A program made the position numbers and the translations under genes. A stretch of 64,000 bases of DNA from Ginglymostoma cirratum (taxonomy: Eukaryota): positions 8,588,328 through 8,652,327 of the forward strand of contig JAHRHZ010000004.1 in NCBI GenBank assembly GCA_024137785.1, read 5' to 3'. Within the stretch, counting starts at the first letter, position 1. Each line of letters starts with the position of its first letter. The notes below the pieces were generated by a model, which saw only the letters and a list, made by a program, of their open reading frames with translations, did no database searches and was not told where the DNA came from. Positions 4,461-61,819 of the stretch are shown piece by piece.

Positions 4461-4508
4461 ATCAGGCATAGGGAACCTTGTACTTTTTAATTATAGCCTT
4501 TTGTAAAA

Positions 4509-4729
4509 ACCAAAAGAACTGCATATGCTATAAATCAGAAACAAAAACCGAAATTGTTCGGAAATCCTAGCAGGCCTGGCTGCACTTGTAAAGATAAATC
4601 AGAGTTTAACATTTTGAAACTGGTGACTGTTCCTCAGAACAGGACCTGTAAATCTCAAACTCTTATCTCTCTTCACAGATGCTGCCAAACCTGCTGTGCT
4701 TTTCCAGCAATGTTGGTTTCAGTTTTTGG
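4509..4729. mobile_element. PLE-derived fold-back insertion (older family)
   Basis: Inverted PLE terminal arms; TSD gccttttgtaaaa 4496-4508 / gcctttcgtaaaa 4730-4742. Confidence 0.7.
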
Positions 4730-5204
4730 GCCTTTCGTAAAATGTTAATTGAAGCCTGTTTTTAAAACAAAAAATCTTCTTCCTTTTTTGAAAGTTCCAT
4801 CTTTATTGTATCGGGTTCCCTCTGGAGTGGGATTACTGTGTATCCAGGTAGATTCCAAGCTAAGGGAATGGGTTGGGATGATGGTCTGACAGGAAAACCT
4901 GAGCTCTGAGGCAAAATTTGCAAAACGCGTGCAATTGAGAATGGTGTGCGGAATTTACTGCAGCAGGAACTGTTTAATCTCAGATCCATTGGCTCACAGT
5001 CATGAGTGTGCAGTGCAGCTGGTTCCTAAAGTCCATTTGTTCACTCTTAGAAAGGCATTTGACTGAGATCAAGTCATCTGCCAAGCTCGAATGTCATTGC
5101 ACCATCAGAGTATCACTATCAAATGGACCTGGGTTAAGTCCCACCAAAGAGACCTGCTCTTTGCTTAATTGTCTGAGCTTTTTCACTTGGACTGAGGTGA
5201 AAAA

Positions 5205-5820
5205 AAGGTTTCATTCGTATAGTGCCTTACACGACCACCAGGCATCCCAAAGCATTTTGCTGCATAAGCAGTATTTTTGTTTTAAGTGTGGTCACCATTG
5301 TTGTGATGTGGAAAAGTACAGCAGCTAACCTGTGCACAGCAAGCCCCTACAAACAGCACTGCAATAATGTGTGGGGGATGGTTAGCTCACTTAGCTGGAT
5401 GGGTGGTATGTAGTGTGGACCAGTGTGGGTTCAGTTCCTATCTGGGCTGAAGTTCCCATCTTCTCTGTCTCTCTCCTTGCATCAGGAGTCTGGAGTTAGC
5501 ACCAACCACCTCTTTTTAATGGGATTATGATGACTTTACTAATGGTGAGATAACCTGTTCCTGTGATATTGATTTGAACGATGAGTATCAGTAAGGACAC
5601 CAGAGAGAATCCATTGCTTAACTTTGGAGTAGTGCCACAAGACCATTTAAATTTTCAGAGCCACTGGGTGGTATGGTACTGAAAGAAGGCATAGGATTTC
5701 TCATTACTTGTGCTGGGATCAGGGGAAGGAGCTGGTCCGACTTGATCTTTGGGTTCAAGCCTAGAGTGGGACTTGAACCCACAATCTTCTAAGTCAAAGA
5801 CACATATACTACCGACTGAC
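5205..5820 (-). mobile_element. SacSINE1/DeuSINE-like element
   Basis: Head 'ttgtgggttcaagtcccactc' and tail 'aaatgctttgggatgcctggtggtcgtgtaaggcactatac' on minus strand. Confidence 0.65.
5372..5540 (+). mobile_element. Short tRNA-derived SINE family C nested in DeuSINE
   Basis: 'ttagctcacttagctgg...gtgggttcagttcc...gactttact'; related copies at 35135-35325 and 53845-54105. Confidence 0.55.
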
Positions 5821-5851
5821 GTGAAGCAGCCTCTGCTGCACTGAGCTAGAG

Positions 5852-6447
5852 TCATACAGCACAGAAACAGACCCTTCACTCCAACTTGTCCATGCTGACC
5901 AGATGTCCTAAATTAATCTAGTCCCATTTGCCAGCATTTGGCCTATATCCCTCTAAACCCTTTCTATTCTTGTACCCATCCAGATGCCTTTTAAATGTTG
6001 TAATTATACCAGCCTCCACCACTTCCTCTGGCAGCTTGTTCCACACACACACCATCCTTTGCATGAAAATGTTGCCCCTTAGGTCCCTTTTAAATCTTTC
6101 GCCTCCCACCTTAAACCTCTGCCCTCTAGTTTTAGACTTCCCTACCCTGGGGAAAAGACCTTGACTGTTTACCCTATCCATGCCTCTCATGATTTTATAA
6201 ACGTTCTGTAAGGTCACCTCTCAGCCTTTGATGTTCCAGGGAAAATAGCCCCAGTCTATTCAGCCTCTCCCTGTAGCTCAAACCCTCCAACCCTGACAAC
6301 ATCCTTGTCAATCTTTTTCTGAACCCTTTCAAGTTTCACAACATCTTTCCTAAAAGAATTGAATGGATTATTCCAAAATTGGCCTGAATTCTGGTCTCTC
6401 TGCTATAGAAAAGATGTTGTGAAACTTGAAAGGGTTCAGAATAGATT
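5852..6447 (-). mobile_element. CR1/HER1-like LINE 3' fragment with fold-back 5' end
   Basis: ORF 5918-6217 'VYKIMRGMDRVNSQGLFPRVGKSKTRGQRFKV...WNKLPEEVVEAG' is CR1 ORF2 C-terminus; TSD agctagag 5844-5851 / 6448-6455. Confidence 0.9.
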
Positions 6448-7529
6448 AGCTAGAGGAGAGGTTTTGAAACATCAGCCAGGTTTCTCACTCCCATCGCTGT
6501 CCAGTGACTACTCTGGGAACGATGTGGGTAGAGGCAACTTGCCAACTGAGCTGTACCCATGTGCTGGCTGCATTTGGGAGAGGAGACCAGGGAACCTTTT
6601 TCTGCAAAAAGCAGTTACTTTTTAAAATGATGAAACCCAGGCAAAACAATCCACAGTATCCAACAGTTACCGTGCTGCCAAAGATTAATGTCATTGGGAC
6701 TGGAATGTGAGCTTTATTCCATGCATGAGAAAATAGCCTGATTCTCAAGGTTTTTTTTGTGTGTTGCACCTATTCACAAACTTGGATGTGGTTCAGAATT
6801 CCCAGAGAACAAAGAGACCTGTATCCTACTGGCTCAGGGAGTGAACCTGGTGAGTATAGCTATGTACAATACCGTTCTCTCACTCAACACTGATGCTGTG
6901 ATAACTTGTTAAAAGAAAGTGTGTTGGACTGGATGAATTGTGTGACCTTTTAAGAGACAATGTTGATCTTCTTCAGTACAACCCAGACATAAATTTCAGA
7001 AAAATAAGAGTCCATTCTTGTTTTCTGCTTATTTTGACCACACAGTCATACTGCGGAGCTGGAAAGTGGTGAAGAAACATCATTTAGAGTTCCTGATTGA
7101 CCCTGAGTACCTCGTGTTCCTGATCAACACCTGGTGAATGCTGCAGGGAAGTTGCGCCTGTGTGCATTCCTGGTGGAGATCTGGCCAGTCTTGGCTGTGA
7201 GGTCTTCCTCATAGTCAACATCTGGTATCTAGAGCTGTAGGTAAAGGGTAGTAGTTTGAGGTGAGAGATCAGAAAATGGCCATCAACTCTGCAATTGTAT
7301 GTAATAAACACAACCAGTACCCTATGAAGGAGAAATATATTAGAAAGGGGTGGAGGTGTCTACCTATTGCATAAAAACAGTCATGACCCAGACCTTTTCT
7401 TGAGCAGTCTCTTCCAATAATGTGAATTTCCACTTTAGCATTGTGTGCATGTGAACGACCATGAGTTCCTGCCTCATTGGAAGAATGTTTGGATGAGGTT
7501 ACATCAACAGGAGTTCTTGGAGAAGTTAG

Positions 7530-7632
7530 AACAAAAAGTGTTGGAGAAACTCAGCAGGTCTGGCAGCATGTGTAGAGAGAGAAACAGTTAATTTTTTGAG
7601 TCCAGTATGACTCTTCCTGATGAAACGTCTGC
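7530..7632 (-). mobile_element. PLE terminal-repeat fragment
   Basis: 'gttggagaaactcagcaggtctggcagcatgtgtagagagagaaacag' motif shared with other PLE ends in window. Confidence 0.65.
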
Positions 7633-9578: not shown

Positions 9579-10091
9579 CTCTCGGTTTTGAACCCAAGGC
9601 TGTGGTCAGACTGCATTTGGAATGTTGTGAGCAGTTTTGGGCCCTTCTAGGGAAGGATGTGTTGGCCTTGGAGGCCATCTGGAGAAGGTTATGTTTAAAA
9701 AAAAAACAACCCAGGAATGAAGGGATTTTCACATGAGGAGTGGTTGAGGACTCTGGGTCTGTACTTGATGATGGAGTTTAGATGGATGATCGGGATCTGA
9801 TTGAAATTTACCGAATATTGAGAGGCCTGGATAGAGTGGATTTGGGAAAGATGTTTGCACTAGTAGGAGAGACTGGGACCTAAAGGCACAGCCTCAGAGC
9901 GAAGGGACAGCCCTTTAGAACTGAGACGAAGAGGAATTTCTTCAGCTAAGGGGTAGTTATTCTATGGAATCTGTTGCCACAGTGGTCTGTCACTGAGTGT
10001 TTTTAAGATAAATAGGTTCTTTTTAGTAAGGGGATCAAGGGTTACTGGGAGAAGGTAGGAGAATGAGGTTGAGAAACAAATCAGCCATGAA

Positions 10092-10375
10092 GGGTGACAC
10101 AGTGGCTCAGTGGTTAGCCCTGCTGCCTCACAGTCCCGGTGACTGTCTGTGTGGAGTTTGCACATTCTCCCCGTGTCTGCGTGGGTTTCCTCTAGGTGCT
10201 CCAGTTTCCTCCCACAATCCAAAGGTGTTCAGGTTAGGTGGATTGGCCCATGCTAAACTGCCAATAATGTTCAGGGATGTGAAGATTAGGGGAATGGGTG
10301 TGGGTGGGATGCTCTGAGCATCAGTGTGGACTTGTTGGGCTGAAGGGCCTGTTTCCACACTGTAGGGATTCTATG
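10092..10375 (+). mobile_element. HE1-type V-SINE
   Basis: tRNA head 'gtggctcagtggttagc', V-domain 'tgtgtggagtttgcacattctccccgtgtctgcgtgggtttcc', tail 'gtagggattctatg'. Confidence 0.9.
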
Positions 10376-10875
10376 GTCAAATGGTGGAGCAGACTCAATG
10401 GGCCAAATGGCCTAATTCTTCTCCTGTACCTGATGGTCTGATTGCAGTAATTGTGTACTTTCCACTTTCATAAATCCAATAGTCTTCTTCCTCTCTCCAT
10501 GAAAATTTCACTTTGTTATGTTACTTCCCTTGAGAATAAATTGCTCTTTGGCTGGACCAATAATTTCCTTATGGGTCTGTAATATCATACAAGTGAGTGC
10601 TTGCTAGGGTAAGTTTTGTTCCATAGCTGCCTTTTGCTCATAAATGAAGCTGGAGAGTTTGTTCACAGGCAGTTCAACATCGGTAAAGGCCGAGTGCTAA
10701 ACTTAGTCTGTGTCTTTGCAAGCACACATTTTCCAGTAGAATCCTAGAATGGTGACCAGGAATGGGAGTTGAGGAAGACTGCCTACACCTGAGATCAGTT
10801 AACTCCATGTTGACCAGGGAATAAGACTGGGCTCATCCTGGTTTGTAGGGTTCAGTTACACTTTGCTAAGTCCCT

Positions 10876-11265
10876 AGAGATAATAAGAACTGCTCACGCT
10901 GGAGTCAGAGACAACACAATGTGGACCTGGAGGAACACAGCAGGCCAGTCAGGAGCAGAGGAGCAGGAAAGTTGACATTTTGGGTCGGGACCCTTCTTCA
11001 GAAATGGGGAGGGGGAAGGGAGCTCTGAAATAAATAGAGCAGGGGTGGGAATGGGGAAGGTAGGTAGGATGGTGATAGATGAGTGCAGGTAGGCAGTGGT
11101 GGGGATTGATGAGGAGGGAGGAGCGGATAGGTGGGAGAGAAGACGGACAGGTTGTGTCAGGTCAAGGAGGCGGGATGAGAGGGAGGGTTGGTCATGGGAT
11201 GAGGCCGGGAGTGGGGAGATTTTGAAACTAGTAAGACCCACATTTAGGCCTATGGGTGGTAGGCT
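10876..11265 (-). mobile_element. PLE 3' fragment (GIY-YIG tail plus terminal repeat)
   Basis: 'LTSFKISP' end of PLE ORF; pyrimidine-rich UTR; decayed hammerhead CTGAAGA-agggtcccgaccc-AAAA. Confidence 0.85.
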
Positions 11266-11294
11266 GGTAAGTCTGGCTTTCTTAAACTATGTGC

Positions 11295-13384: not shown

Positions 13385-13490
13385 CACGTTTAACTCTTGT
13401 TTCTCTATTTCAGACACTGCCAGTCTTGCAGAATTTTGCAGCACTTCCTGTTTTCAGATCAGCAGCATCTGTTGTCTGTTGCTTTCAGTT
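13385..13490 (+). mobile_element. Degenerate PLE terminal fragment
   Basis: 'taactcttgtttctctatttcagacactgccag...cagcatctg'. Confidence 0.55.
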
Positions 13491-14750: not shown

Positions 14751-15016
14751 ACCAGTTTTTCCCCGTGGCAGCACAACTGTGGGTCTGCTCTAGACCCTTC
14801 TCTTCATGAGTTGGTCTGGGCCAGTGTTGTGGGCCAGCCCACCCTGTGGGTCAGTGGGCACATGGTGCAGATTTGGGTGCTTTTAAACCTGATGATCTCT
14901 CCCACTTGACCTTTGAACTTTGAGTTTGTCCCATCTCCACTGGAATCCAGAGGTGCTGTATGGAAACTTTGTGGCGGGACAATGGGGAGAGAGGAAACAT
15001 TTGACAAAGTTCATGC

Positions 15017-15163
15017 AGAGGTAGTAAGAACTGCCGATGCTGGAGTCAGAGATAAGACACTGTGGAGTTGGAGGAACGCAGCAGGCCAGGCAGCATCAGA
15101 GGAGCAAGCTTTCCTGCTCCTCTGATGCTGCCTGGCCTGCTGTGTTCCTCCAGCTCCGCACTG
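15017..15163. mobile_element. PLE-derived fold-back insertion
   Basis: Arms 'ggaggaacgcagcaggccaggcagcatcagaggagca' / 'tgctcctctgatgctgcctggcctgctgtgttcctcc'; TSD tgacaaagttcatgc 15002-15016 / tgacaaggttcatgc 15164-15178. Confidence 0.85.
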
Positions 15164-15540
15164 TGACAAGGTTCATGCTCCTGGTTAGTATCGAGTAACT
15201 CTGAAGTGAGATGCAATGACTGATCAGGGGAAAAGCCAGCACTAGCTTTGGCTGTGATTCTGCGGCATCTTCCAAAGAAGCCTTGGGTATTGCATGAGCT
15301 GAAACAAATCACTCATTTTCGGGAACAAGTAAGTTACTTTTCCTTGACCCCTGGTCTTCTGTCCCCAGGATCCCAACTGTCACAAATTCTTGATAACAAG
15401 CATGGGGCTGGATGAACACAGCAGGTCAAGCAGCATCATAGGAGCAGGAAAACTTGACATTTCGGGCCTAAACTCTTCTCTATCCGCCTCCCCCTCTCTC
15501 CCTATTTATTTCAGAACCCTCTTCCCCTCCCCCATTTCTA

Positions 15541-15940
15541 NNNNNNNNNNNNNNNNNNNNNNNNNNNNNNNNNNNNNNNNNNNNNNNNNNNNNNNNNNNN
15601 NNNNNNNNNNNNNNNNNNNNNNNNNNNNNNNNNNNNNNNNNNNNNNNNNNNNNNNNNNNNNNNNNNNNNNNNNNNNNNNNNNNNNNNNNNNNNNNNNNNN
15701 NNNNNNNNNNNNNNNNNNNNNNNNNNNNNNNNNNNNNNNNNNNNNNNNNNNNNNNNNNNNNNNNNNNNNNNNNNNNNNNNNNNNNNNNNNNNNNNNNNNN
15801 NNNNNNNNNNNNNNNNNNNNNNNNNNNNNNNNNNNNNNNNNNNNNNNNNNNNNNNNNNNNNNNNNNNNNNNNNNNNNNNNNNNNNNNNNNNNNNNNNNNN
15901 NNNNNNNNNNNNNNNNNNNNNNNNNNNNNNNNNNNNNNNN
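15541..15940. other. Assembly gap (400 N)
   Basis: Run of N. Confidence 1.
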
Positions 15941-15989
15941 CGCCTCCCCCTCTCTCCCTATTTATTTCAGAACCCTCTTCCCCTCCCCC

Positions 15990-16025
15990 ATTTCTGATGA
16001 AGGGTTTAGGCCCGAAACGTCAAGT
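15990..16025 (+). ncRNA. Minimal type I hammerhead ribozyme motif in PLE terminal repeat
   Basis: CTGATGA-a-ggg-tttagg-ccc-GAAA-C-GTC; short stem I attt/aagt. Confidence 0.65.
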
Positions 16026-16204
16026 TTTCCTGCTCCTATGATGCTGCTTGACCTGCTGTGTTCATCCAGCCCCATGCTTGTTATCTCGGATTCTCCAGCA
16101 TCTGCAGTACCTTTTATCTCTGTCACAAATTCTTATTCAGTCCTCCACATTTGTCTTTGTAACAGCATTTCTCAAAGTCTCTCAGGAAATGCATCAGACT
16201 ATTT

Positions 16205-16735
16205 GATTTGATTTTTTTTTTATTGTCACTCGAACCACGATACAGTGAAAAGAATTGTTTTGTGTGCTAACCAGAAAAATCATACCTTACATAAGTATAT
16301 CAGGGTAATAGGACAGAATGGAGAATATAGTGTTACAGCTACAGAAATGTTGCAGAGAAAAATCGACTCTAAAATATGAGAGGTCCATTCATAAAGTCTG
16401 GTAACAGCGGGGAAGAAGCTGTTCTTGAATCTGACGGTGGGCATTTTCAAACTTTTGTATCTCTGCCCGATGAAAGAAGGTGGAAGAGAGTGTAACCCAA
16501 ATAAGAAGGGTAGTTTTGATGATGTTGGATGCTTTCCCACTGCAGTGGGAAGTGTAGACTGAGTCAGTGGAAGGAAAGCTGGTTTTTATGATGGACTATG
16601 GATACAACTGTCATTTCTTGCAGCCTTGGACAGAGCAGATGCCATACCAGGCTGTGATGCATCTGGTTAGGATGTTTTCTGTAGTGTAGCTATAAAACCT
16701 GGTCAGGGTCGTTGTGGACATGCCGAATTTCTCTG
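16205..16735 (-). mobile_element. Rex1/Babar-clade LINE 3' fragment
   Basis: 'GQRYKSLKMPTVRFKNSFFPAVTRL'; tail 'ttttcactgtatc...gtgacaataaa'. Confidence 0.8.
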
Positions 16736-16739
16736 TCTG

Positions 16740-17152
16740 TCAGCTGCGGCACAGTGGTAGAATCCATCAAATCTCAAGATTTCCATTTCAAGTCCCACTC
16801 CAAGGCTTGAGCTCAAGACTTGAAGCTGATGTGCTGAGGCAGTGCTGCATTGACCCATCTTTTAGTCAAGGCAGTAAACTGAGGTCCTGTATATCTACTT
16901 GAATGGCAATTAAAATCGCAATGCAATATTGGAAGGAAGCATGAGGCATATATCTTGCTAGTGCCCAGACCAGTAATAATCCTTCATTTAGTACCATTAT
17001 TACCTCTGATAACAGTATGATCTTGCCCTGTTCCCTACATTACAAGTGTGATTACATTTCAGAAGTACTTTATTGGCTTCTATACAGTAGATGGTTATGA
17101 GAAGGGTTGTGCAAAAGTGAATCTTACAGTTGCAATATAAATGCAAGGTGTT
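16740..17152 (+). mobile_element. SacSINE1/DeuSINE-like element
   Basis: 'ttcaagtcccactccaaggcttgagc...taaactgaggtcctg...cctacattacaag...atataaatgcaag'. Confidence 0.65.
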
Positions 17153-17429
17153 GTTTTAATCAGACTAGCATTTTAAGGTTGGAATAAAGCGGCAAAGTAA
17201 GCTGTGCCTCAAAAAGATGGGGTCATTTCAGAAATTCTGATTACAATGTAGTTTAGATTTGATGTAAAAATAGCAAAAGATATGGGAAAGGCAAGGCTAC
17301 TTCACTGGGCAAGAAACAAATTGTTACATGGTGAATAAAAATGTGGCCCAGCTTGAAATTGTTGCGTAGAATTTTAGATGAGGGATCCTAAGTATGTAAG
17401 TTGGTTTGTGGATAGAACCCAAATCACGT

Positions 17430-18588: not shown

Positions 18589-18624
18589 GCAGGCCCTGCC
18601 TCAAAATACTGCTCCCAGGACACT

Positions 18625-18940
18625 TCTTTTTATCCGAAGTGGAAGTCAATGGCAAGGCCAGCATCTGTTGCCAATCCTGATGGTTTGTTCGGCCATTTAG
18701 AAATCAATCACATTACACGTGACTCCAGACCCACATGCTGATTTTCTTCTCTTAAAGGGCATTTGTAAACAAGCTGCGGTTTTGACAATCCAGTCATAGG
18801 CATCATTACTGAGATTAATTTTATATTCTCAATTTTTAATTAATTTTAATTCCACAGGCTGCTGTAATGAAATTTGAACTCATTTGCTATAGCTTCAGCT
18901 TAACAGTCCAGCAACATTACCATTCTTCCCTGCGTCTCCC
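18625..18940 (-). mobile_element. tRNA-derived SINE family B (degenerate)
   Basis: 'gcaaggccagcatctgttgccaatcc...taacagtccagcaacattacca'. Confidence 0.6.
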
Positions 18941-19124
18941 CTCATGAAGTTAGGTCCATCATTTTTTCCCGGGCTAGATTCCAAATTAAAAACAAATTGC
19001 TTTTTATTCATTGGTCATAGAAAGACGAGTTTGAGCAAGTTAATGAGGAAAGGGTTAGTCCGGGCACTGAGTTTGAGGGGAAGTTGGGAATACAGGAAGA
19101 CAAAATGCACTGTCTTAAGGTCTC

Positions 19125-19545
19125 AGCGAAAATTTGTAGCTTGGGTCACGGATGTGTTTGCTCGCTGAGCCGGTTGTTCTGTGGTGTGCAGATGTTTCGT
19201 TACCATTCTAGGCTATATCATCAGTGTGACCTCTCATCAAAGTGTTGGTGTTTTGCGCCATTCTGGATTTATATGATCCTCTAGTATGTTGGGTCTTGTC
19301 ACTTCTGGTTCTTTCGTTTTAGCAGCGGTCTATATATGGGGCCTATTTCTGTGTTTGTTAATGGACCCTTGTGTTGAGAACCAGGCCTCCAGAAATTCCC
19401 TTGCATGTCTGGTGTTCACTTGTCACGGTATGGTCACTTTGTCCCAGTCGAACTGATGGCACTCGTTGTCTGTGTGTATTGAGACAAGTGAATATTGGTC
19501 ATGTCTTTTTACTGCCAGCTGGTGTTCGTGTATCCTGGTCATCAG
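19125..19545 (-). mobile_element. Poseidon-type PLE: GIY-YIG C-terminal part plus terminal repeat
   Basis: 'TRIHEHQLAVKRHDQYSLVSIHTDNECHQFDWD...RHAREFLEAWFS'; hammerhead-like core CTGATGA...GAAACATC at 19191-19224. Confidence 0.85.
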
Positions 19546-19825
19546 ATCCCCACACGTGTTCCATTGGGCCCAAGAATTTCTCCTACTGCTCAAGGACACA
19601 AAAATCCAAGAGAACGAGATCATGATCTCCTTCGATGTTACAGCACTATTTATGTCCTTTGACATACCGTTAGCCAGACGGACACTAGCCACACTACTTG
19701 ATGGACCAGGAGCACTGAACCTGAATGCTGGCAATAACATCAGCAAGGACAACTTACTGAAGCTGCTAGATTTATGCCTCACAACGCACTTCATGTTTAA
19801 CGGACAGATATACAAACCGATCAGG
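19546..19825 (+). mobile_element. PLE reverse transcriptase fragment, inverted relative to its endonuclease
   Basis: 'EIMISFDVTALFMSFDIPLA...LLKLLDLCLTTHFMFNGQIYK' contains the PLE RT SFDV..LF motif. Confidence 0.85.
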
Positions 19826-23684: not shown

Positions 23685-24200
23685 GGAGAGGTGATGTCCT
23701 AATGGTATTATTGCTGGATTGTTAATTCAGAGGCTGAAGTAATGTTCTGGAGACTGGGTTTCGAATCCTGCCATGGCAGATGGTGCAATTTTGAATTCGA
23801 TTTTTAAAAAAATCTGGGATTAAGGGGTCTAATGACCACAAATCCATTGCCAGGGAAAAACCTGTCTCATTCACTAATCCCCTTTGGGGAAGGAAACTGC
23901 CATCTTTACCTGGAGATAGCAAGAACTGCAGATGCTGGTGTCAGAGACAACACAATGTGGAGCTGGAGGAACACAGCAGGTCAGTCGACGTTCTGAAATG
24001 TCGACTTTCCTACTCCTCTGATGCAGCCTGACCTGCTGTGTTTCTCTAGCTTTGTTGTCTCTGCCATCTTTACCTGGTCTGGCCTATGTGACTCCAGACC
24101 CCTAGCAATTTGGTTGACTCCTAACTGCCCTCTGGGCAATTAGAGATGGTCAGTAAATGCTGGCCTCGCCAGAGATGCTGTCATCCTGTAAATAAGTAAA
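23685..24200 (+). mobile_element. tRNA-derived SINE family B, interrupted by PLE fold-back
   Basis: 'gggtttcgaatcctgccatggcagatggtg...ctgccctctgggcaattagagatgg'. Confidence 0.8.
23914..24060. mobile_element. PLE-derived fold-back insertion
   Basis: Perfect 17-bp TSD ctgccatctttacctgg 23897-23913 / 24061-24077; inverted arms 'aacacagcaggtcag' / 'ctgacctgctgtgtt'. Confidence 0.9.
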
Positions 24201-24391: not shown

Positions 24392-24654
24392 AACGTTTTA
24401 GAGTAGATTTATAGCTTGGGTTGTGGGTGTTGAGGTCGGTTGGCTCGCCGAGCTGGTTTGTTTTTCCGCAGATGTTTCATTGCCGTGCCGGGTAATATCA
24501 TCACTGCAGCCTCTGATGAATCGCTGTTGTGTTTTCCCACCTGTTATTTAAACACAACGGCGCTTCGTCAGAGGCTGCACTGAAGATGTTACCCAGCAGG
24601 GTAATGAAACTTCTGCAGAACAACCAACCAGCTCAGCGAGCCAATCAACCAGAA
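24392..24654. mobile_element. Poseidon-type PLE fold-back insertion with two opposed hammerhead-like cores
   Basis: Perfect 16-bp TSD caaacatagattttct 24376-24391 / 24655-24670; roughly 95-bp inverted arms. Confidence 0.9.
24575..24618 (+). ncRNA. Hammerhead ribozyme-like motif (cleavage-site base altered)
   Basis: ctgca-CTGAAGA-t-gttaccc-agca-gggtaat-GAAA-C-TTC-tgcag: 5-bp stem I, 7-bp stem II. Confidence 0.55.
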
Positions 24655-28799: not shown

Positions 28800-28924
28800 T
28801 CTGGCTGTTGGGACAGCTCAATCTATGCCTGTTCCCATTCCAGGACGTAGCTGCATCTGGAATGCTAAAACTGCTCATCCCGCTGGCTATCCCTGTGAAC
28901 TTCCTCACCTGTACCAGGCAGGTT

Positions 28925-29101
28925 TGGTGTGAGGCTGGAAAAGCACAACAGGTCAAACAGCATCCAAGGAGAAGGAAAATAAACGCTTCAGCCCAAAATG
29001 TTGACTTTCTTGCTCCTCGGATGCTGTCTGACCTGCTGTGTGCTTTTCCAGCCTCACACCTATAGACTCTAGCTTCCAGCATCTGCAGTCCTTATTGTCT
29101 T
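28925..29101. mobile_element. PLE-derived fold-back insertion
   Basis: Arms 'ggtgtgaggctggaaaagcacaacaggtca' / 'tgacctgctgtgtgcttttccagcctcacacc'; TSD only weak (caggtttg/cagatttg). Confidence 0.8.
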
Positions 29102-30107: not shown

Positions 30108-30339
30108 AGATAGTAGGAACTGCCGATGCTGGAGAATCTGAGACAACAAGGTGTAGAGCTGGATGAACACAGCAGGCCAAGCAGCATCAGAGGAGCAGGA
30201 AAGCTGACGTTTCGGGTCTAGACCCTTCCTCAGAAAAAAGTTTTTTCTTAAGAAGAGTCTAGACCCGAAACGTCAGCTTTCTTGCTCCTCTGGTGCTGCT
30301 TGGCCTGTTGTGTTCGTCCAGCTCTACACCTTATTGTCT
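30108..30339. mobile_element. PLE-derived fold-back insertion with ~100-bp arms
   Basis: TSD cagttatcatcagcag 30092-30107 / cagttatcataaacag 30340-30355. Confidence 0.9.
30206..30233 (-). ncRNA. Minimal hammerhead ribozyme motif
   Basis: Reverse complement reads CTGAGGA-a-gggtctagaccc-GAAA-C-GTC; opposite-arm copy 30247-30274 is mutated (CTTAAGA). Confidence 0.6.
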
Positions 30340-31084: not shown

Positions 31085-32732
31085 ACAACAAGAATGAGAG
31101 GGCATAGATTAAAGTAAGCTTCAAAAGAAGCAAGGGTGAAGCAAGGAGAAACATTTTTACTCAGTGAGCGGCTCGAGTATGGAATACACTGCTGGGAAAT
31201 GTGTCGAAGGCAGGTTTCAGTTGAGGCATTCAGGAGAAACATTGGATGATTTGGAGACAGTAAGGTCTGCAAATGTTGGAAGTTGGAGCCAATAAATGTG
31301 GAGCTGGAAGAGCACAGCAGGTCAGACAGCATCTGAGGAGCCTGGGGAGGGGTAGGGGAGCCCAGCAATAAGTGGAGGGGGTGGGGCTGGGGGTAGGGTA
31401 AGTGGGATGGAGACAGGTGGATGTAGATAGGGGTTTATTATTGATGGGAAGTGGGAAGGATGGAGTGGATACGTGAGTCGGAAGATGGACAGGTTGGGAG
31501 TGGAGAGATTATGAAGCTGGTGAAGTCAATATTCAGGCCACTGGGCTGTAAGCTCCCAGGGTGAAATATCAGGTGTTGTTCCTCCAGTTTACGTTTGGCC
31601 TCACTCTGACAGTGGAGGAGGCCCAGGATGGACATGTCACCAGAGGAGTGGAGGGGAAGTTAAAGTGGATGGCAACCAGAAGTTTAGGTTAGTTGGTGCA
31701 TGCAGAGCACAGGTGCTCCACAAACCAGTCCCGGCGTATCCATTTATGGCCTCTCTGATATAGAGGAGACCACTTCAGGAGCAACGGATACAGTAGATGA
31801 GGTTAGATGAAGTGCAGGTGAATCTCTGTCAGATTTGGAAGGATTGTGTGGGGCTTTGGACAGCGATGAGAGGGGAGGTGTAGGGACAGGTATAGCACCT
31901 CCTGCGGTTGCAAGGAAAGGTACTGGGTGTGGTGGAGGCATTGGTGGGACGTGTGGAGCTGACGGGGACGTCGCGGAGTGAATGGTCCCTGCAGAAAATG
32001 GACAGGGTTGGGGAGGGAAATGTCTTTTTGGTGGTGGGGTCTGATTGTAGGTGGTGGAAATGTCGGAGGATGATGTTTTGTATTCGGAGGTTGATGGGGT
32101 GGTATGTGAGGACTAAGGGACTTTATCCTTGTTGTTTTGGGGAGAAGGTTTGAGGGCAGAAGCACGGGAAATGGGGGAGATGAAGTTGAGGGTATCCTTA
32201 ATAACAGAGGAGGGGAAATTATGGTCCCTAAAGTAGGAGGATAACTGGGAAGTCCTAGAGTATAACGCCTCATCCTGGGAGCTGGTGCAGCGGAAGAATT
32301 GAGAGTATGGGGTTTTTTTGCAGAAGGGTGGGTGAGAGGAGGTGCAGTCGAGGTAATTGTGGGAGTCAATTGGTTTGAAATAGATGTCAATGGTGAGTCA
32401 GTTACTGGAGATGGAGATGGAGACGGAGAGGTCCAGGAAGGAGAGAGAGGTGTCAGAAATAGTCCAGGTGAATTTGAGGACAGGGTGGAAAGTGGTGACA
32501 AAGTTGTTGAACTGTTCGAGTTCCTCCTGGAAGCATGAGGCAGCACCGATAAAGTCGTCAGTGTTGTGGAAAAAGAGGTGTGGAATGGTATCGGTCTAGT
32601 TATTTGGATAGAAATAGTGTGTTGGGATATGGGGGAAAGCAGGAGATTGGCAGTAGGGAACGATGCTCATCTGCAGAGCTGGTACAGGATAATAGATCAA
32701 GTGGCCTCTTCTCCAGTGTAATAATTCTGTGA
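31085..32732 (+). mobile_element. CR1 3' end split by PLE (31085-31253 and 32596-32732)
   Basis: 'gaatgagagggcatagattaaag...tggaatacactgc' resumes 'atttggatagaaat...caagtggcctc...attctgtga'. Confidence 0.65.
31254..32595 (-). mobile_element. Penelope-like retroelement, 1.3-kb 3' part (RT C-terminus, GIY-YIG endonuclease, terminal repeat); frameshifted
   Basis: Relics 'DFIGAASC..ELEQFNNFVTTFHPVLKFTWTISDTSLSFLDLSVS', 'CTSSNLIYCIRCS..GLLYI', 'KRKLEEQHLIFHPGSLQPSGLNIDFTSF'. Confidence 0.9.
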
Positions 32733-35620: not shown

Positions 35621-36164
35621 ATTTGAGGAGAAGATTGGTGCTGCGTTGGCATCTATTGGCCTCCACGATGATGCTGATGATTCCCAGCAGGTCTCTATAA
35701 GATGCAACTTATTTCCATTGATTAGGGCCATGAGTCGAGAGTCATGAGGTGCTTTCAAACATCCCAAGAATGTGATAAGATGCTACCTAAATGTAAGACC
35801 GGTTTTGGTTATCTTATCATTACTAAAAGTTGCAGATGTCAGCCAGTATACGAGTGAGATAAGGATTAGCAGTTGTGACAATAAATTGATGTTCTGAATA
35901 TGCAGGTTTACCATAAGTTAAGTCATCATGTCCTTCCTGGGTGAATTGACATCCAAATTCACTGAAGAAATCGTTAAAAGCAGGCACAATGTCAGAGACT
36001 CATCCAGGATACCATGATCTGAGCATTGTTACTTCCACAGGGCTCACGGAGCGAAACATTTTGGTAGGTTTCCTTTTATAGTAAACATTTTAATATTTAA
36101 TTCCCTTTTCTTTAAACATTTTTTAAGTTTTCAATTACACTATTATCCAAGTTAGCAAGTGGAC

Positions 36165-36360
36165 AAATGCAAAATGCTGGAAATCTGAAGTAAAAATTGA
36201 AAGGCATGGAAATAATCAGCGACTGTAAGCCAGCAGTGGAGAGAGTAATTGAATTAAGCTTTCATTAGAAAGGTTATTGATTGGAAGCTTTAACTTTGTT
36301 TCTCAATCCACAGAAGCTGCCCGACTTGTTGAGTATTTCCAATATTTGAATTTATTTCTC
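36165..36360. mobile_element. Old, degenerate PLE fold-back
   Basis: 'atgctggaaatctgaag...gtggagagag' / 'ctcaatccacagaagctgcccgacttgttgagtatttcca'. Confidence 0.6.
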
Positions 36361-43563: not shown

Positions 43564-44075
43564 ATGGTAGAGCAGCTCAGTCACCTGGAAGAAGGGTCCA
43601 GACTCGAAACGTCAGCCTTCCTGCTCCTCTGATGCTGCCTGACCTGCTATGTTCATCCAGCTCTCACCTTGTAATCTCGGATTCTCCAGCATCGGCAGTT
43701 CCTACTATCTCTCAATCACGTGGAATGTGTCTCCTGTAGTATGTGGGAATATGTATGAAGCTACCAGTGACCTAGACAACCATATGTGTAGGAAGTCTTG
43801 TCAATTCCAGAAAATTGAACTCTGGGTTTTGGAGCTCGAGTGGCAGCTGAGTCACTGTGTTGCATCTGTGAGGCTTAGAGCCATATTTGTGTAACATTTT
43901 TGCCACAGGCTAGGGACATGGGGACAGAAAGGGAAGGTTGACCAGCAGGCAACCCGGGAAGTGGTGATGGACTGCTCGCTAACCAGTTTCCAGTTTTGGG
44001 TACTGGTAAAGATGTTGGCTTCTCCAGAGGACTGTTGCCAGGAACGAGTCAGGCTATGGGTGACCATCACTGCCA
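43564..44075 (+). mobile_element. CR1 ORF1 N-terminal relic (zinc finger/leucine zipper)
   Basis: 'MVEQLSH|VECVSCSMWE...DNHMCRKSCQFQKIELWVLELEWQL'. Confidence 0.7.
43585..43710 (+). mobile_element. PLE terminal-repeat insertion into CR1 ORF1
   Basis: TSD ctcagtcac 43576-43584 / ctcaatcac 43711-43719; altered hammerhead 'ctggaagaagggtccagactcgaaacgtc'. Confidence 0.85.
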
Positions 44076-44454: not shown

Positions 44455-45080
44455 TAGAGCCTGAAGGCATTTATTAATAGGGGCAGAGAGTACAAGAATA
44501 TGGAGGCAATGTTGAATTTGTGTAAGACACTTGTTAGACCTTAGCTGGAGCATTACGTGACCTCATTCTAACTCTCAATTCGTACAGGTTACGGTAAGGT
44601 GGGTAAGATGTTTTCCCTGGTAGGTGGTGTTGAGAACCAGGGGATGTTAACTCAGGACTAGATTAGACCATGTAAAACTGAAATAAGAATGCATTTCTTC
44701 ATGCAGAGGGTGGTGAATTATTGGAATTCTATACCTGAGAAGCTGTGGAACTCGATCAATGGGCAGGCTCAAGACAGAAAAACAAACACCAAGAATGCTT
44801 GAGAAATGCAGCAGAAACTGGGAAGTTCTGAGCAAGCGTCATACTGGACTCCAATGCAGTTTCTCTGTCCGTGGATGCTGCCAGTTTCTCCACCATTCCC
44901 GGGCTTTGTTTCAGATATCCAGCATCTGTAGTATTTTGCTTTTAAGGTCAAGGCAGAGTTCTGGAGGTTAATAGCATCAAAGGAATTGGGGAAAGTGGCA
45001 TGGAGGTAGATGATCAGCCATGATCTTATTGAATGTTGGAACAGGTTTGATGGGCTGAATGGCCTACTCCTGTTCTTATT
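44455..45080 (+). mobile_element. CR1 3' fragment containing a degenerate PLE fold-back (~44779-44946)
   Basis: 'gagtacaagaatatggagg...cagagggtggtgaatt...gggctgaatggcctactcctgttc'; flanks tcaagacaga/tcaaggcaga. Confidence 0.8.
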
Positions 45081-47683: not shown

Positions 47684-48333
47684 TAGATAACAAGCATGGG
47701 GCTGGATGAACACAGCAGGTCAAGCAGCATCATAGGAGCAGGAAAACTTGACGTTTCGGGCCTAAACCCTTCATCAGAAATGGGGGAGGGGAAGAGGGTT
47801 CTGAAATAAATAGAGAGAGAGGGGGAGGCGGATAGAGGATGGATAGAGGAGAGGATAGGTGGAGAGGAGGCAGACAAGTCGAAGAGGCGGGGATGGAGCC
47901 AGTAAAGGTGAGTGTAGGTAGGGGGGTAGGGAGGAGATAGGTCAGTCCAGGGAGGACGGACAGGTCAAGGGGGCAGGATGAGGTTAGTAGATAGGAGATG
48001 GGGGTGTGGCTTGAGGTGAGAGGAAAAACAGGTTAGGGAGGTGGAGATGAGCTGGGCTGGTTTTGGGATGCGGTTGGGGGAGGGGAGATTTTGAAGCTTG
48101 TGAAATCCACATTGATGCCATTGGGTTGCAGGGTTCCCAGGCTGAATATGATTTGCTGTTCCTGCAGCCTTCGGGTGGCATCACTGTGGCATTGCAGGAG
48201 GCCAAGGATGGACATGTCATCTGAGGAATGGGAGGGGGAGTTGAAATGGTTCGCGACTGGGAGGTGCAGTTGTTTGTTGCGAACTGAGCGCAGGTGTTCT
48301 GCAAAGCGGTCCCCAAGCCTCCGCTTGGTTTCC
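47684..48333 (-). mobile_element. Young PLE 3' part: GIY-YIG endonuclease C-terminal region and terminal repeat
   Basis: Open frame 'ETKRRLGDRFAEHLRSVRNKQLHLPVANHFNSPSHS...RRLQEQQIIFSLGTLQPNGINVDFTSF'. Confidence 0.92.
47746..47781 (-). ncRNA. Minimal hammerhead ribozyme motif, intact core
   Basis: Reverse complement CTGATGA-agggtttaggccc-GAAACGTC, identical to 15994-16021. Confidence 0.65.
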
Positions 48334-49516: not shown

Positions 49517-49669
49517 ATAAAGTTATTAGTGAGGTCACTTGAGGAAAGTTGTGTTTAATTCTGGTCACTCTGCTACAGGAACGACATTGTTTAACTTGAG
49601 AGGGTGCAGAAAAGATTTGCAAGGATGTTGCCGAGTGAGAATGAGGGGGAGAGTGAACATAATAGAATA

Positions 49670-51867: not shown

Positions 51868-52532
51868 GAGTTGCAGGTAGTCAGGATAGTGAAGAAGGCG
51901 TTTGGTACGCTTGCCTTTATTGGTCATTGCATTGAGTATAGGTGTTGGGAGGTCATGTTGTGGCTGTACAGGACATTGGTTTGGCCACTATTGGAGTACT
52001 GCGTGTAATTCTGTTCTTTCTGCTATTGGAAGGATGTGTAAAAATTGGAAGAGTTCAGAAAAGATTTACAATGATGTTGCCAGGGTTGGAGAGTTGAGTT
52101 ATAGGAAGAGGGTAAATAGGCTATGTCTATTTTTCCTGGAGCATCAGAGGCTGAGGGTTGAACTTACAGACGTTTATAAACTCAGGAGGGGCATGGATAG
52201 GGCGAGTAGCCAAGGTCTTTTCCCCAGGGTGGGGGAGTCCAAAACTAGAGGCAATGGGTTTTAAGTGAGAAGGGAACGATTTAAAAGGGACCTAAGGGGC
52301 AATTTTTTCACACAGAGGGTGGTGCATGTATAGAGTGAGCTGCCAGAGGAGGTGGCGGAGGCTGGTCCAATTACAACATTTAAAAGGCATCTGGATGCAT
52401 ATATGAATAGGACGGATTTAGAGGGCCAAATACTGGCAAATGGGACTAGATTAATTTGGGATATCTGGTTGGCATGGATGAGTTGAACCGAAAGGTCTGT
52501 TCCAATGCTGTACAGGTCTATGAGCCTATGAC
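51868..52532 (+). mobile_element. CR1/HER1-like LINE 3' part
   Basis: 'LEHQRLRVELTDVYKLRRGMDRASSQGLFPRVGESKTRG'; tail 'ctatgagcctatgac'. Confidence 0.9.
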
Positions 52533-56427: not shown

Positions 56428-56545
56428 GATAAAACAAAGAACTGTTGGAGGTCTGAAATAAAGTGCTGGAAAAACTCAGCAGCTCTGGCAGCATCTGTGG
56501 AGGGAGAAAAACAGAGCCAATGTTTTGAATCCAGTGACTCTTCAT
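56428..56545 (-). mobile_element. PLE terminal fragment inserted in a tRNA-like SINE head (56385-56630)
   Basis: 'gctggaaaaactcagcagctctggcagcatctgtggag'; host resumes 'gagttcaagtcccacctgctccag'. Confidence 0.7.
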
Positions 56546-56679
56546 TGGGTGAGTTCAAGTCCCACCTGCTCCAGATATGTCATTACATGGTGACTAAAAA
56601 TCAGTCATCAAGCCGAACAGGTTGATTTAAAATATTTACCCATTTTAGATTGCTACAGGTTTCAGCTTTTTATTGTATA

Positions 56680-57990
56680 CGTTGGAACAAACCAGCACTA
56701 CATTAGTTTGCATAGTAACTTGTGTAATTGGGAGAATTGAGTCAATTAGTGACAGGCTAAATAATTTGATAGTTTTACCAATGTCAAAGAAAAGTTTTAC
56801 AAAAGTCTTTCTCCTTGTATCTGTGAAAGACAAGTTGGAATTCTTTCTTAATTCCGGAGTCCCACATGGCAGATTGATACAAAAACTAAAATCACATGGG
56901 ATTCAGGGCAGGTTGACTAGATGGATACAAAACTGGCTTGGTCATACAAGACAGAAGGTAGTGGTGGAAGAGCATTTTTCAGAATGGAAACCGGTAACTA
57001 CTGGTGTTCCACAGGGATCGGTCTTAGACCCTCTGTTATTTGTAGTGTATATATGAATGATCTGGACGAAAATGTGAGTGGCCTGATTAGTAAGTTTGCA
57101 GATGACATGAAGATTGGAGTTGCTGATAGTTTCAACAATTGTGAAAGCATGCAACAGGCAATAAATTCGCAACTTGGGCACAGAAATGGCAGATGGTGTT
57201 TAATCCAGACAAATGCGAGGTGATGCATTTTGGAGAATCAAATTTAGGTGAGAATTAAACTGTTAATGGCAGAACCCTTAGGAACATTAACATACAGCTG
57301 GAACTGGGCAGGTCCACAGTTCCCTAAAAGTGGCAACACGGGTGGCCAAGGTGATTAAGAAGGCATATGGCATGCTTGCCTTCACTGGCCGGGGCATGGA
57401 GTACAAGAGTTGACAATTCATGTTGCAGCTATATAAAACCCTTGTTGGGCCTCACTGGAGTGTTGTGTGCAGTTTTGGTCACCACATTACCAAAAGGACG
57501 TGGAAGCTTTGGAGAGAGTGCAGAGAACGTTCATCAGGATGTTGCCCAGTCTCAAGGGCATTGGCAATAAGGAAAGGTTAAAAAGTCTAGGATTGTTTTC
57601 ACTCAAAAGACTGCGGCTGAGAGGAGACCTGGTAGCAGTCTACAAAATTAAGAGGCGTAGATAGGGTGAATAGTTAGAGGCTTTTGCCCAGGGTTGAAGT
57701 TTCAGTTACAAAGGGGGCACAGATTCAAGGTGAGAGGGGGAAGTTTAAGGGAAATATGCAAGGCAAGTTTTTCACGCAGAGAGTGGTAGGAGCTTGGAAC
57801 GCACTGCCAGATGAGGTGGTGGAAGCAGGACGTTGGTGACATTTTAAGAGGCGTCTGGATGATTACATGAATAGGGAGGGAATAGAGGGATACGGACTGA
57901 ATAAGGACAGAGGTTTGTTTTTCTAGTTTAGTCAGGGCATGATGTTCGGCACAGGCTTGGAAGGCCAAAGGGCCTGTTCCTGTGCTGTGC
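56680..57990 (+). mobile_element. CR1-clade LINE RT core to 3' end (frameshifted)
   Basis: 'VPHGRLIQKLKSHGIQG..WIQNWL...TGVPQGSVLDPLLFVVY', 'NDLDENVSGLISKFADDMKIG', 'QFWSPHYQKDVEALERVQR'. Confidence 0.95.
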
Positions 57991-58635: not shown

Positions 58636-58734
58636 CATCAGTGTCTATGATTTGGTGATAACTGAGCAGAAGACCATTAACCTGTGGTATATATGCTTTT
58701 ATTTTGAACCATTCTGTGGGACATTATGAAGCAT

Positions 58735-58910
58735 AAAAACATGGAAACTTAGGAAATAGAAGCAGGAGTAGGTGATTTAGCCAATTGAGCATTACTTGAT
58801 CATGTGTGACCCAAACCATTTCCCTGCATTATCTCCATATCCTTTTAATGTCTGTTGGTGTCTAACGATCTACCGATCTCTGTCTTGAACATAGCCAGTG
58901 TCTGAGCCAG
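58735..58910 (-). mobile_element. CR1 3' tail
   Basis: 'aaatagaagcaggagtagg...tctctgtcttgaacata'. Confidence 0.65.
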
Positions 58911-59314
58911 TGCCTTGGAAAGGTCACTTGGAGATATGACCATATCCAATCAGTATCATGCACTGGCCCATTTATTGTAAACTAGATTGCCATCAGGAGA
59001 AGGAAGGAAAGATGACAAGTTGAGTCTGAATTATGTGTGATTCTCCACACCAAACCTCACTGTTACCATAATCAATGGTAGAATAACTGTAGGCTTAATT
59101 TATTTTGAACTGTAAATTAAGACCCATTCATCTTGGGTGTGCCCCTTCTGTACTCTGATGATCCGTCAAGTGGTTAACATAGAAATGCCAAATATCCATT
59201 GGTATCAGTTGGATCCTGGGAGGTGATGCTGCAAAGTGGCTGGTTAGAGGGAATTTCAGAAAGTACGTTCATATAATGTCCCTAAATAATATCAAACACC
59301 ACAGTTGTGAAACA

Positions 59315-59410
59315 AAGATAGAGGTTGCTGGAAAAACTCAGCAGGTCTGGCAGCATTTGTGGAGAGAAACCAGAGTTAACGTTTTGGGTCGAGGTGAGCC
59401 CTCCTCAGAA
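59315..59410 (-). mobile_element. PLE terminal-repeat insertion
   Basis: TSD ccacagttgtgaaaca 59299-59314 / ccatatttgtgaaaca 59411-59426. Confidence 0.75.
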
Positions 59411-61819
59411 CCATATTTGTGAAACAGAATTACTCCCTCAAGTCTGCTGTCTTATATTTTAAAAAAAGCTATAAGCTCATTCGTAACAAGTAATTTTGAA
59501 ACAGCAACACTGAAATTAACAGAAAATGTTGGATTGCATTTATAATTTGCTTTTAACAAAGTGCTGATGGTTCTTTTTAGTTAGATTAACTTGGCTTAAT
59601 TCCACTAATGGATCCTGCGCCAGCGTGTGCTTTATTCAAAGTTATGAATTTGACAATAAATAAGATTTTTGCCTCGGAAGCTTTGGTTTTGAAGTGTTCT
59701 TTTTAAACTTGGAGTTGTACAGCAAAGAAACTACACAGTTATCGTAGGACCAGAGGACAAGCCCCAAAGGAACAGCTCAGCAGCTGAGTAATAACTTCCA
59801 ATTCTTCCTTTTTTCCGGTGTTATGGTTTCAGGCTGCCCCTTTGGGAGCAGTTTCCTGCAAATCCATGACATCCTTCTTGGACATTTGAAGATTTCAATT
59901 CTGGCGTGTTTGGTTAATTTTCAATGAATGAATGGTGTATTCCCAGAGTCGGAGCTTCAGAATTCCCACTTAACTTCGCAGCTGGAAATAATATTGATAA
60001 GGGCTAAGTTAAACATCTGGACTGTTTTTAGAAGGATTGTAATTGTAGCAGAAGGGAGAAGAGTAACTAGCACAGTTCAAGCATTATGCCTCGTCTAAGG
60101 GACCTGCATGCTTGATTTGAAAATGTGGAAGTATAATTGGCGAAGGCTGATTGCTGCCTGATGTCTCTTATAGGTTTTGGTCTCTGAAATTTTCCTATAA
60201 GAAGCGCACTTCCAGAAAAAAAAACAATCTTCCATTTGAGTCCCAAAATGTTTAGTCCTTCCAACACTCTGTGCACATGTATATGTGCGGAGGAACCTGT
60301 AACTCCTACACATCACACACAATGTTTGTTGCACACTTAACATTAACTGCTGACACGTTTTGAGGTTTGCATGTCCAGACAACTCCATGGATGCTTCAGT
60401 AGATGTTGGAAGCAGTGATGTTGGGGGTGAGGGAGTAAAAACATTTTCTAAAAGAGGGACTTTTATGTAGCTGCTTTCTAACCCAAATTCATCGTATGCT
60501 TTACTTACAAAATAATACAGTGATCACCTTCTTTTTCCAGTTCGTCCAAAGCAAGTAATCAGACGATTTTTGCTTGCAGATTTTTTTGTACGTCCTTTGT
60601 TGACACTTGTTTAGAGGTTCCTCAAACATTCTCCCCTTTGCCTCTCCCAACCCCCACTTCTCTCTACTCCAAGGTTCTGAGTTTGTGTTGACCTACACAA
60701 TGGGTGCATTTATTTGATCCTGCCCTCAACAATTATTGTCACTTTGCAATAGGTTTCAGCGAAAAGGGAAAGGCTTGCAATTGTATAAAACCTATTCTTT
60801 TGATGTTCTCACAATTCTGATCCCCCACAGAAATGATGATGTGAATGCAGGTTCGATTTAGAATTGCAGCTAAATCTGATACTGGAACCATGCAGAATGA
60901 AATACCTGGAGCTTGAGCTCTCAAGTCCGTTTGCCCTCCCTGTTTAGTTGCAACTTCACCAACATTAAAGTTATGAAGTATAAATCGATGATGTTTCCGA
61001 GTGCCTTGTGTGTAAGATTATCTAATTTTGCCTGTGTGGTCATCACCCTGTTTCACCCAGTAGAATGAACACTGAACACTGATTGGTCTTGTTTGCCGTG
61101 GTCCCGTCAAATGAAATCCACATACACACTCATTTTTTTCAGCCCCTGTATCTGATCGAACATAGTTTGGTTGAAATATACATTGCATGCTAATGAAATT
61201 GCATTCAGCATTAGAAAGAACCTTGGTGAATAGACAGACTCCATGCACAAACAGTGCAGCAAAACAGATAAAGGCTGCTTGAATCAACAGTGCGATCCAA
61301 AAATGTATGTGCAGGCTGTGGAGTAGATCTTTTGGCCCCTTAACCTGTCACGGATTCTGTGGGTCCTTGTGTGGCTGATGACTCTGATCCGAGAGCCGGC
61401 TCTCTGACCACGCATTTGACAGGTTTTTCCAGGAGGTGAAAACTGGTCCTTGGCCTTGGGTTCACTAGCATTCCTTTCTCCACTTCCTTTCCCATACTCT
61501 CTCTTGCCGCTGGGTGCCCTCAAAGAATTGTCCCAGGCTATTCGTCCACGTTGGTCTCTTCTGAACTAGGGTCTCCCAGGCACTGACATCTATGTTGCAT
61601 TTCTTGACGGAAGCCTAGTTACAGTGGAATCTAGTGGTCAGACTACATTTGTAATATTGCTTTCTGTGTAGCAATGAAAGTGGTAGAACATCACAAAGGG
61701 TAAAGAATAAACTGAATGCAATTAAAAATGATTTAGCTTCCGTTCAAAGGCTGCAGCGAAGGGAATGGAATGGAGAGTTTAATGAACGCGTGAACAGGAG
61801 CAAACCATTGAAATATTTA

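Follow-up and report, generated by a model that had tools for sequence, protein, structure and literature searches.

The stretch analysed here, referred to as the window, comprises 64,000 nucleotides of Ginglymostoma cirratum (assembly GCA_024137785.1, contig JAHRHZ010000004.1, positions 8,588,328 to 8,652,327, forward strand). It consists of repeat-rich animal DNA of approximately 42% GC with one gap of 400 N (15541-15940), and it holds 18 loci carrying an end of a Penelope-like element (PLE): nine head-to-head hairpins, eight single arms, and one non-overlapping inversion. All counts reported below were drawn from this single 64-kb window, and sample sizes are small. Searching with a profile derived from 15 window arms produced 24 hits, distributed over 17 loci; the reversed window gave no hit, and hits on the arms used for building the profile are found by construction. 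Removal of one weak hit (29203-29261, E 0.054) and addition of two Poseidon-type loci resulted in the final 18. The better hairpins were recovered by inverted-repeat and self-BLAST scans, and all nine were confirmed by arm-to-arm alignment. Nine fold-back inserts had been described in an earlier sequence-only reading of the window; all were found where it had placed them, each pairing an antisense arm with a sense arm of a single repeat.

Hairpin inserts and their arms

Each hairpin has the order target-site duplication (TSD), antisense arm, sense arm, TSD, with the element 3' ends pointing outward; "tailed" designates the arm that retains the terminal part of the 3' end. The nine inserts are the following.

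4509..4729, hairpin of an old Neptune-like family; antisense arm (4509-4640) tailed, sense arm without tail; TSD 4496-4508 / 4730-4742, 13 bp, 1 mismatch
15017..15163, Neptune-type hairpin; tailed arm antisense, tail-less arm sense; TSD 15002-15016 / 15164-15178, 15 bp, 1 mismatch
15392..16119, hairpin spanning the 400-N gap; antisense arm (15392-15478) without tail, sense arm tailed; TSD 15377-15391 / 16120-16134, 15 bp, exact
23914..24060, Neptune-type hairpin nested in another repeat; TSD 23897-23913 / 24061-24077, 17 bp, exact
24392..24654, Poseidon-type hairpin; 38-nt tail, on the antisense arm; TSD 24376-24391 / 24655-24670, 16 bp, exact; hammerhead-like motif 24580-24610
28922..29101 (below, 28925), Neptune-type hairpin; tail on the sense arm; TSD unconvincing, 8 bp, 1 mismatch
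30108..30339, best-preserved hairpin, Neptune-type; arms 92% alike, 33-nt tail; TSD 30092-30107 / 30340-30355, 16 bp, 2 mismatches; hammerhead-like motif 30209-30233 (-)
36160..36360 (below, 36165), decayed hairpin of the old family; tail-less arm extending 19 nt further 5' than the tailed arm; no TSD above chance
44779..44945, decayed hairpin of the old family; tail on the sense arm; possible TSD 44769-44778 / 44948-44957, 10 bp, 1 mismatch

Hairpin sizes range from 147 to 272 bp, with 15017 and 23914 both measuring 147 bp; the 272 bp of insert 15392 is valid only if the gap is an unmerged overlap, because this hairpin spans the 400 N. Fifty-five identical bases flank the gap (15485-15539 and 15941-15995), which suggests that 15541-15940 probably represents such an overlap and that the assembly broke inside the PLE hairpin. 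When DNA folding was compared with 50 base shuffles, z-scores between -6 and -22 were obtained for six of the eight hairpins folded (15392 was left out), and weaker ones for 44779 (-3.1) and 36165 (-2.1). Both arms are cut down to 45-180 nt and differ within a hairpin by 2-28%, with a mutation-like spectrum; in well-preserved inserts they share subfamily variants. For insert 24392, divergence between the arms amounts to 17% (9 transitions, 9 transversions) despite the exact 16-bp TSD, and TSD detection is biased; two different template RNAs could account for it. In 30108, mutations are in excess in the tail-less arm (about 7 of 8), although the sites are too few to carry weight.

All nine hairpins possess exactly one tailed arm, the left one in six cases and the right one in three, and the tail measures 26-41 nt (median, 33). 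If the ends had chosen their sites independently at 50:50, this one-tail rule would be expected with p=0.002. In the Neptune-type repeat, tail-less ends lie at approximately +57 to +65 from the predicted hammerhead cut and the tailed end at +98. The inner arm ends are variable and mostly located in or near the hammerhead region, and no junction is shared between any two of the nine hairpins. Short palindromes are present at the junctions of 15017 and 28925. The short arm of 15017 has its start precisely at the cut predicted for the hammerhead, where a 4-base palindrome lies (15106-15113); run-off on a self-cleaved RNA is a possible cause (n=1). Near the left end of 30108, paralogous contigs stop at 30105 (at least 1232 records) and at 30145 (at least 1050), with unrelated letters beyond, in one of four contig runs aligned to 14800-31000.

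The hammerhead core pattern was matched seven times in the window, five of these matches lying in arms. Stem II of the hammerhead-like motif is 84% paired and slid controls are lower, but 175 of 500 shuffles were as high, and support from covariation is weak; one of the five motif regions folds better than shuffles, and the Rfam search gave no hammerhead hit. A microRNA identity of the hairpins was rejected, as Rfam hairpin models matched below threshold only, in the manner of generic hairpins.

Single arms, longer copies, and family identity

Besides the hairpins, the window contains nine PLE loci of other structure.

59315..59409 (-), single tail-less arm of the old family; TSD 59298-59314 / 59410-59426, 17 bp, 2 mismatches
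43591..43710 (+), single tailed arm; TSD 43576-43590 / 43711-43725, 15 bp, 2 mismatches
47686..48332 (-), young tail-less Neptune-type copy of approximately 650 bp; terminal repeat joined to a GIY-YIG C-terminal fragment (48057-48332, 96% to protein P0001); no long TSD
31255..32583 (-), tailed Neptune-type copy with a broken reverse transcriptase (RT) C-terminal part, Cys-rich linker, and GIY-YIG domain
10878..11274 (-), tailed Neptune-type copy including the last codons of the open reading frame (ORF)
19117..19822, Poseidon-type non-overlapping inversion; 3' end and endonuclease (EN) fragment on - (to 19536), RT fragment on + (19535-19822); TSD doubtful
7521..7617 (-), decayed single arm of the old Neptune-like family; no TSD found
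56432..56541 (-), decayed single arm, likewise of the old Neptune-like family; no TSD detected
13390..13472 (+), single arm in advanced decay (profile E 3e-5); no TSD detected

The second TSD-flanked single arm (43591, 15 bp with 2 mismatches) and the three coding-linked copies go beyond the earlier reading. Its claim of a PLE origin holds: since the ends found in the hairpins lead into RT and GIY-YIG coding fragments in longer copies within the window, the hairpins are, by their sequence, 5'-truncated copies of ordinary Neptune-type and Poseidon-type PLEs. Specifically, the Neptune-type repeat of 47686, 31255, and 10878 runs into a pyrimidine-rich region and then into coding sequence with 96%, 62-64%, and 58% similarity, respectively, to P0001, a whale shark protein with RT and GIY-YIG domains (GIY-YIG above the cutoff; RVT_1 with E 9e-5, below it). 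The nearest named homologs of the window PLE fragments are whale shark and zebra shark proteins. Both P0001 and the 31255 copy contain a Cys-rich linker between RT and EN, and a Zn-finger-like Cys motif at this position is described as a Neptune feature, common to Nematis (PMC8557442). The main repeat family can thus be classed as Neptune-type; its layout fits Neptune/Nematis, and the label comes from the linker rather than from a tree. It also draws on general background on vertebrate PLEs.

The repeat of 24392 is related to that of 19117; the latter leads into an EN fragment, and next to it lies an RT fragment with matches to Poseidon-type proteins. P0042, the homolog on the Poseidon side, lacks the Cys linker and is 24% alike to P0001 and 56% to a Schistosoma protein. 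The two halves of 19117-19822 are derived from separate parts of the ORF (amino acids 19-101 and 354-415 of P0042), approximately 250 codons apart and in opposite orientation. The old family (4509, 36165, 44779, 59315, 7521, and 56432) shows a similarity of about 70% to the Neptune-type end, and no coding-linked copy of it was found within the window. Of the three PLE families proposed earlier, two are therefore tied to coding sequence, and the third is tied to PLEs only by this similarity and a hammerhead-like motif. Pfam gave no hit on three window PLE fragments, and hits on two of 16 long window frames, neither of them PLE.

Two Neptune-type segments 32 kb apart, 15985-16085 and 47686-47790, are identical over 101 aligned bases and 98.7% identical over 151, and on these grounds appear to belong to a very young subfamily. 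The end of the 47686 copy falls on the base at which the tail-less arm of 15392 also ends. Four shark gene models (P0037, P0002, P0027, and P0044, with names such as calpain-10 and receptor-transporting protein 3-like) run into PLE ends or hold PLE fragments; the PLE sequence in them is annotation read-through.

Target-site duplications and the proposed origin of the hairpins

Clear TSDs of 13-17 bp were found at eight of the 18 loci, i.e., at six of the nine hairpins and two of the eight single arms, with lengths of 13, 15, 15, 17, 16, 16, 17, and 15 bp (mean, 15.5; standard deviation, 1.3). The first six belong to 4509, 15017, 15392, 23914, 24392, and 30108 and agree with the lengths proposed in the sequence-only reading, with 1, 1, 0, 0, 0, and 2 mismatches, respectively. 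The duplication it had also seen around the single arm 59315 exists, with a length of 17 bp and 2 mismatches instead of 16 bp. Among 3000 random boundary pairs, two reached the score of the weakest clear TSD and none reached 11. As for the shorter duplications suggested at three other hairpins, those at 44779 (10 bp, 1 mismatch; 0.8% of the null) and 28925 (8 bp, 1 mismatch; 4.7%) are weak, and 36165 showed none above chance (46%). A length range as narrow as that of the clear TSDs has a p of approximately 0.001 under a flat 10-25 bp distribution, and one of 0.014 with the three weak hairpins added and a range of 7-20; both values are rough, because short or decayed TSDs escape detection.

The 17-mer of 23914 is present once in each of four uninterrupted paralogs of the host repeat, and this TSD is therefore a true duplication. 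The same comparison with host paralogs at the young copy 47686 revealed at most a few duplicated bases. A stagger of about 16 bp is thus common but not obligatory: the preference suggested earlier stands insofar as detected TSDs cluster near 15-16 bp, and fails as an invariant at 47686. Among the joints listed for the four contig runs, which were swamped by repeats, none skips an insert. In organism C, a 459-nt contig breaks off at 30082, leaving 72 letters unaligned, which is no more than a hint of an empty site; another contig has its start within the right arm of 28925 and hints at a shared insert.

We favor, with moderate confidence, the view that the hairpins were made by coupled twin priming, starting from a pair of nicks spaced about 15-16 bp and from the two RT start sites already described. 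According to this proposal, GIY-YIG domains would nick the two target strands 15-16 bp apart, and each freed 3' end would prime cDNA synthesis on element RNA. One cDNA would start at the distal site and keep the tail, the other approximately 33 nt upstream and be tail-less; both would stall in or near the hammerhead region and then be end-joined head to head, and gap filling would duplicate the stagger, giving the TSD. Priming at one nick only would leave a single arm, tailed or tail-less. That the two primings are coupled, perhaps on one RNA, is suggested by the one-tail rule, which holds in nine of nine cases. Tail-less ends also occur as the sole 3' end, both in the TSD-flanked arm 59315 and in 47686. 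The Anolis Poseidon protein PAc was reported to nick and extend both strands in vitro, with two start sites bounding the tail and a predicted dimer (PMC11167929). Target bases beside both kinds of end often match the continuation of the element by 2-3 nt (7 in 59315, counted by eye), which does not decide the matter because priming and end-joining both fit.

The sequence-only reading had each hairpin arise anew by fold-back or template switch. Formation de novo at each insertion is borne out by the differing junctions and the common subfamily of both arms; fold-back as the route to the short arm is not. In such a process, a target-primed cDNA would fold back or switch template at a short palindrome and copy itself, with the tail set by endonuclease-mediated resolution. 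Self-priming, a closely similar idea, was preferred by Arkhipova et al. 2013 (PMC3846280), and an origin of the tail by endonuclease-mediated resolution was suggested by Craig et al. 2021 (PMC8557442). The junction palindromes of 15017 and 28925 would fit, as would the finding that, in well-preserved inserts, each arm has its nearest match in its partner or within the same subfamily. The short arm, however, has a fixed end point, 26-41 nt short of the 3' end, and fold-back offers no simple reason why this should be the site at which the free tail-less ends of 59315 and 47686 lie; as it requires the second arm to be contained within the first and the tail-less end to be secondary, these lone ends speak against it, and so do the two stopping places of paralogous contigs at 30105 and 30145. 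Moreover, 19117-19822 cannot come from one cDNA copied back on itself, because its halves derive from different, non-overlapping ORF parts; three of the nine hairpins appear non-nested, and both strands were extended in vitro (PMC11167929). Overall, we regard fold-back as rather unlikely. Several points nevertheless count against coupled twin priming. Six of the nine hairpins are nested, the shorter arm being contained in the tailed one, as fold-back also predicts. Each of the non-nested three has another reading: a symmetric palindrome that later lost 4 nt would account for 15017, the difference in 23914 shrinks to only about 5 nt when an internal deletion is assumed, and decay is severe in 36165. 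The TSD of 19117 is doubtful (13 bp, 3 mismatches), and this structure could be a later rearrangement. A clear 13-17 bp TSD is missing at ten of the 18 loci, the young 47686 among them; the length peak is biased because short TSDs easily escape detection; and the two population boundaries at 30105 and 30145 were listed for one of the four contig runs only. Finally, PMC11167929 draws no link to inverted insertions, and Neptune lies outside its study.

Very improbable, in our view, is that the hairpins are ready-made non-autonomous units, MITE-like (miniature inverted-repeat transposable element) or retrozyme-like, copied whole from a few masters. Similar sizes (147-272 bp, twice 147 bp for 15017 and 23914), the great abundance of the terminal repeat in the four contig runs, and the existence of non-autonomous PLE derivatives (10.64898/2026.07.22.740005) would agree with it, and for the old family, whose window copies all lack a coding link, a template of the short, non-autonomous kind is possible; against it stand the absence of shared junctions among the nine, the asymmetric termini, the long and variable TSDs, and the lack of tandem units. 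In line with the earlier reading, shared breakpoints, symmetric terminal inverted repeats (TIRs), and a short fixed TSD were all not seen among the nine hairpins. A MITE or TIR DNA transposon was rejected as a candidate: one arm is always short by 26-41 nt, so the TIRs are not symmetric to both ends, the TSDs of 13-17 bp are not short and fixed, and all junctions are different. An origin after insertion, through inverted duplication in repair or a second adjacent insertion, or an assembly artefact is hardly to be expected at all. The window does hold two non-PLE inverted duplications (6317-6441 and 22194-22259), and 15392 lies on an assembly gap, but a single TSD pair encloses both arms in six of nine hairpins, arms 2-28% divergent with a mutation-like spectrum are unlike an assembly mirror, and the one-tail rule holds throughout.

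Coupled twin priming may be carried one step further, to a tentative proposal that we consider possible rather than probable: PLE integration would be obligately coupled, one RT-EN dimer nicking the strands about 15-16 bp apart and placing its two RT sites on the RNA at a spacing of about 33 nt. TSD and tail length would then be two rulers of the same complex. If true, the very numerous minimal hairpins of shark genomes would be a genome-wide record of the geometry of this complex and would settle the origin of PLE inverted repeats and tails.

Relation to known systems and other features of the window

The structure is a minimal form of the published layout of inverted pseudo-long terminal repeat (pLTR) plus tail, which is already known; the distinct non-coding retro-system proposed earlier is not supported, as the inserts are 5'-truncated ordinary PLE copies in that layout. 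Insertions of EN-containing PLEs likewise show a head-to-head inverted 5'-truncated copy, a tail of 30-40 bp at one end, a TSD around the unit, and some junction palindromes (PMC3846280, PMC8557442). The TSDs given for rotifer PLEs measure 8-10 bp (PMC3846280), compared with 13-17 bp in the window, where copies are truncated to 45-180 nt with little beyond the hairpin. From Chlamydomonas, 5'-truncated PLE insertions of very small size have been described (PMC9977147); PMC8969392 and PMC5718144 give a general description of PLEs. In PAc, two RT start sites bound the tail, both strands are cut and extended, and the hammerhead lies upstream of the start sites; this is the biochemistry of one Poseidon element, whose accessible text contains no TSD length or inverted products, whereas most window inserts are Neptune-type (PMC11167929). 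Metazoan PLE minimal hammerheads have their minimal core in the terminal repeat, where the hammerhead-like motif of the window also lies, and pairs of hammerhead motifs on opposite strands, 100-700 bp apart, were noted in Schistosoma in 2014 (PMC4209133); the available part of that source holds no analysis of TSDs, tails, or junctions and no shark data.

In twin priming of L1, both target overhangs prime on element RNA, which results in an inversion within one TSD, as described by Ostertag and Kazazian 2001 and summarized in PMC9148063; 19117-19822 fits this directly. The second L1 primer is located mid-RNA (PMC9148063), whereas in the shark it would be at a fixed site approximately 33 nt from the first, with both arms from the same sequence and no poly(A). 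Non-LTR (long terminal repeat) retrozymes are likewise short, non-coding, and PLE-derived, and they bear a hammerhead; they form head-to-tail tandems, unlike the head-to-head pairs or single arms of the window (10.64898/2026.07.22.740005). A retrozyme was rejected as a candidate, as the window contains no head-to-tail tandem array with hammerheads. The literature search, which covered the main text of freely accessible papers, yielded neither a proposal of twin priming for PLE inverted repeats nor a TSD table for shark PLEs, a weak absence.

The origin of PLE inverted repeats and of the one-sided tail is stated as open in the field (PMC8557442). As minimal insertions still have their two ends, junction, and TSD, all inside 300 bp, they allow countable predictions (nesting, end position, and TSD length by insert type); their value lies in a testable coupling of TSD length with tail length. 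For annotation they call for caution, as MITE-looking shark hairpins are retrotransposon stubs and microRNA-like scores lie below threshold.

Matches of an arm pattern scan elsewhere (10 metagenome matches, 120 in prokaryote genomes) were rejected as chance, the longest alignment to the arms being 39 nt and lying inside the searched word; one of the 10 metagenome matches was inspected and proved to be bacterial coding DNA. In viral contigs, the pattern scan gave no matches and a search with P0001 no relative.

Some further features were noted. Two of the runs each hold a deep contig that links the hammerhead region of the Poseidon-type repeat at 24610 with the Neptune-type tailed end at 30107, with short sides of 25-26 letters, possibly reflecting a nested insertion elsewhere. 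The inverted duplication at 6317-6441 has 36-nt arms (97%) and lies within a dispersed repeat with paralogs at 49557-49630 and 52007-52085; no TSD was found. At 22194-22259 there is an isolated palindrome with 31-nt arms (94%) and a 4-nt loop, without a paralog in the window or a TSD. Frames at 56649-57056 and 47063-47425, which match RVT_1 (E 2e-6) and ALKBH8_N (E 8e-7), respectively, are likely fragments of other retrotransposons. A second abundant dispersed repeat, presumably of the SINE (short interspersed element) kind, measures approximately 200-330 bp, ends in a short tandem tail, and occupies 22 intervals (e.g., 9848-10439, 24925-25459, and 28491-28801); two opposite copies of it form a loose inverted pair at 24926-25457.

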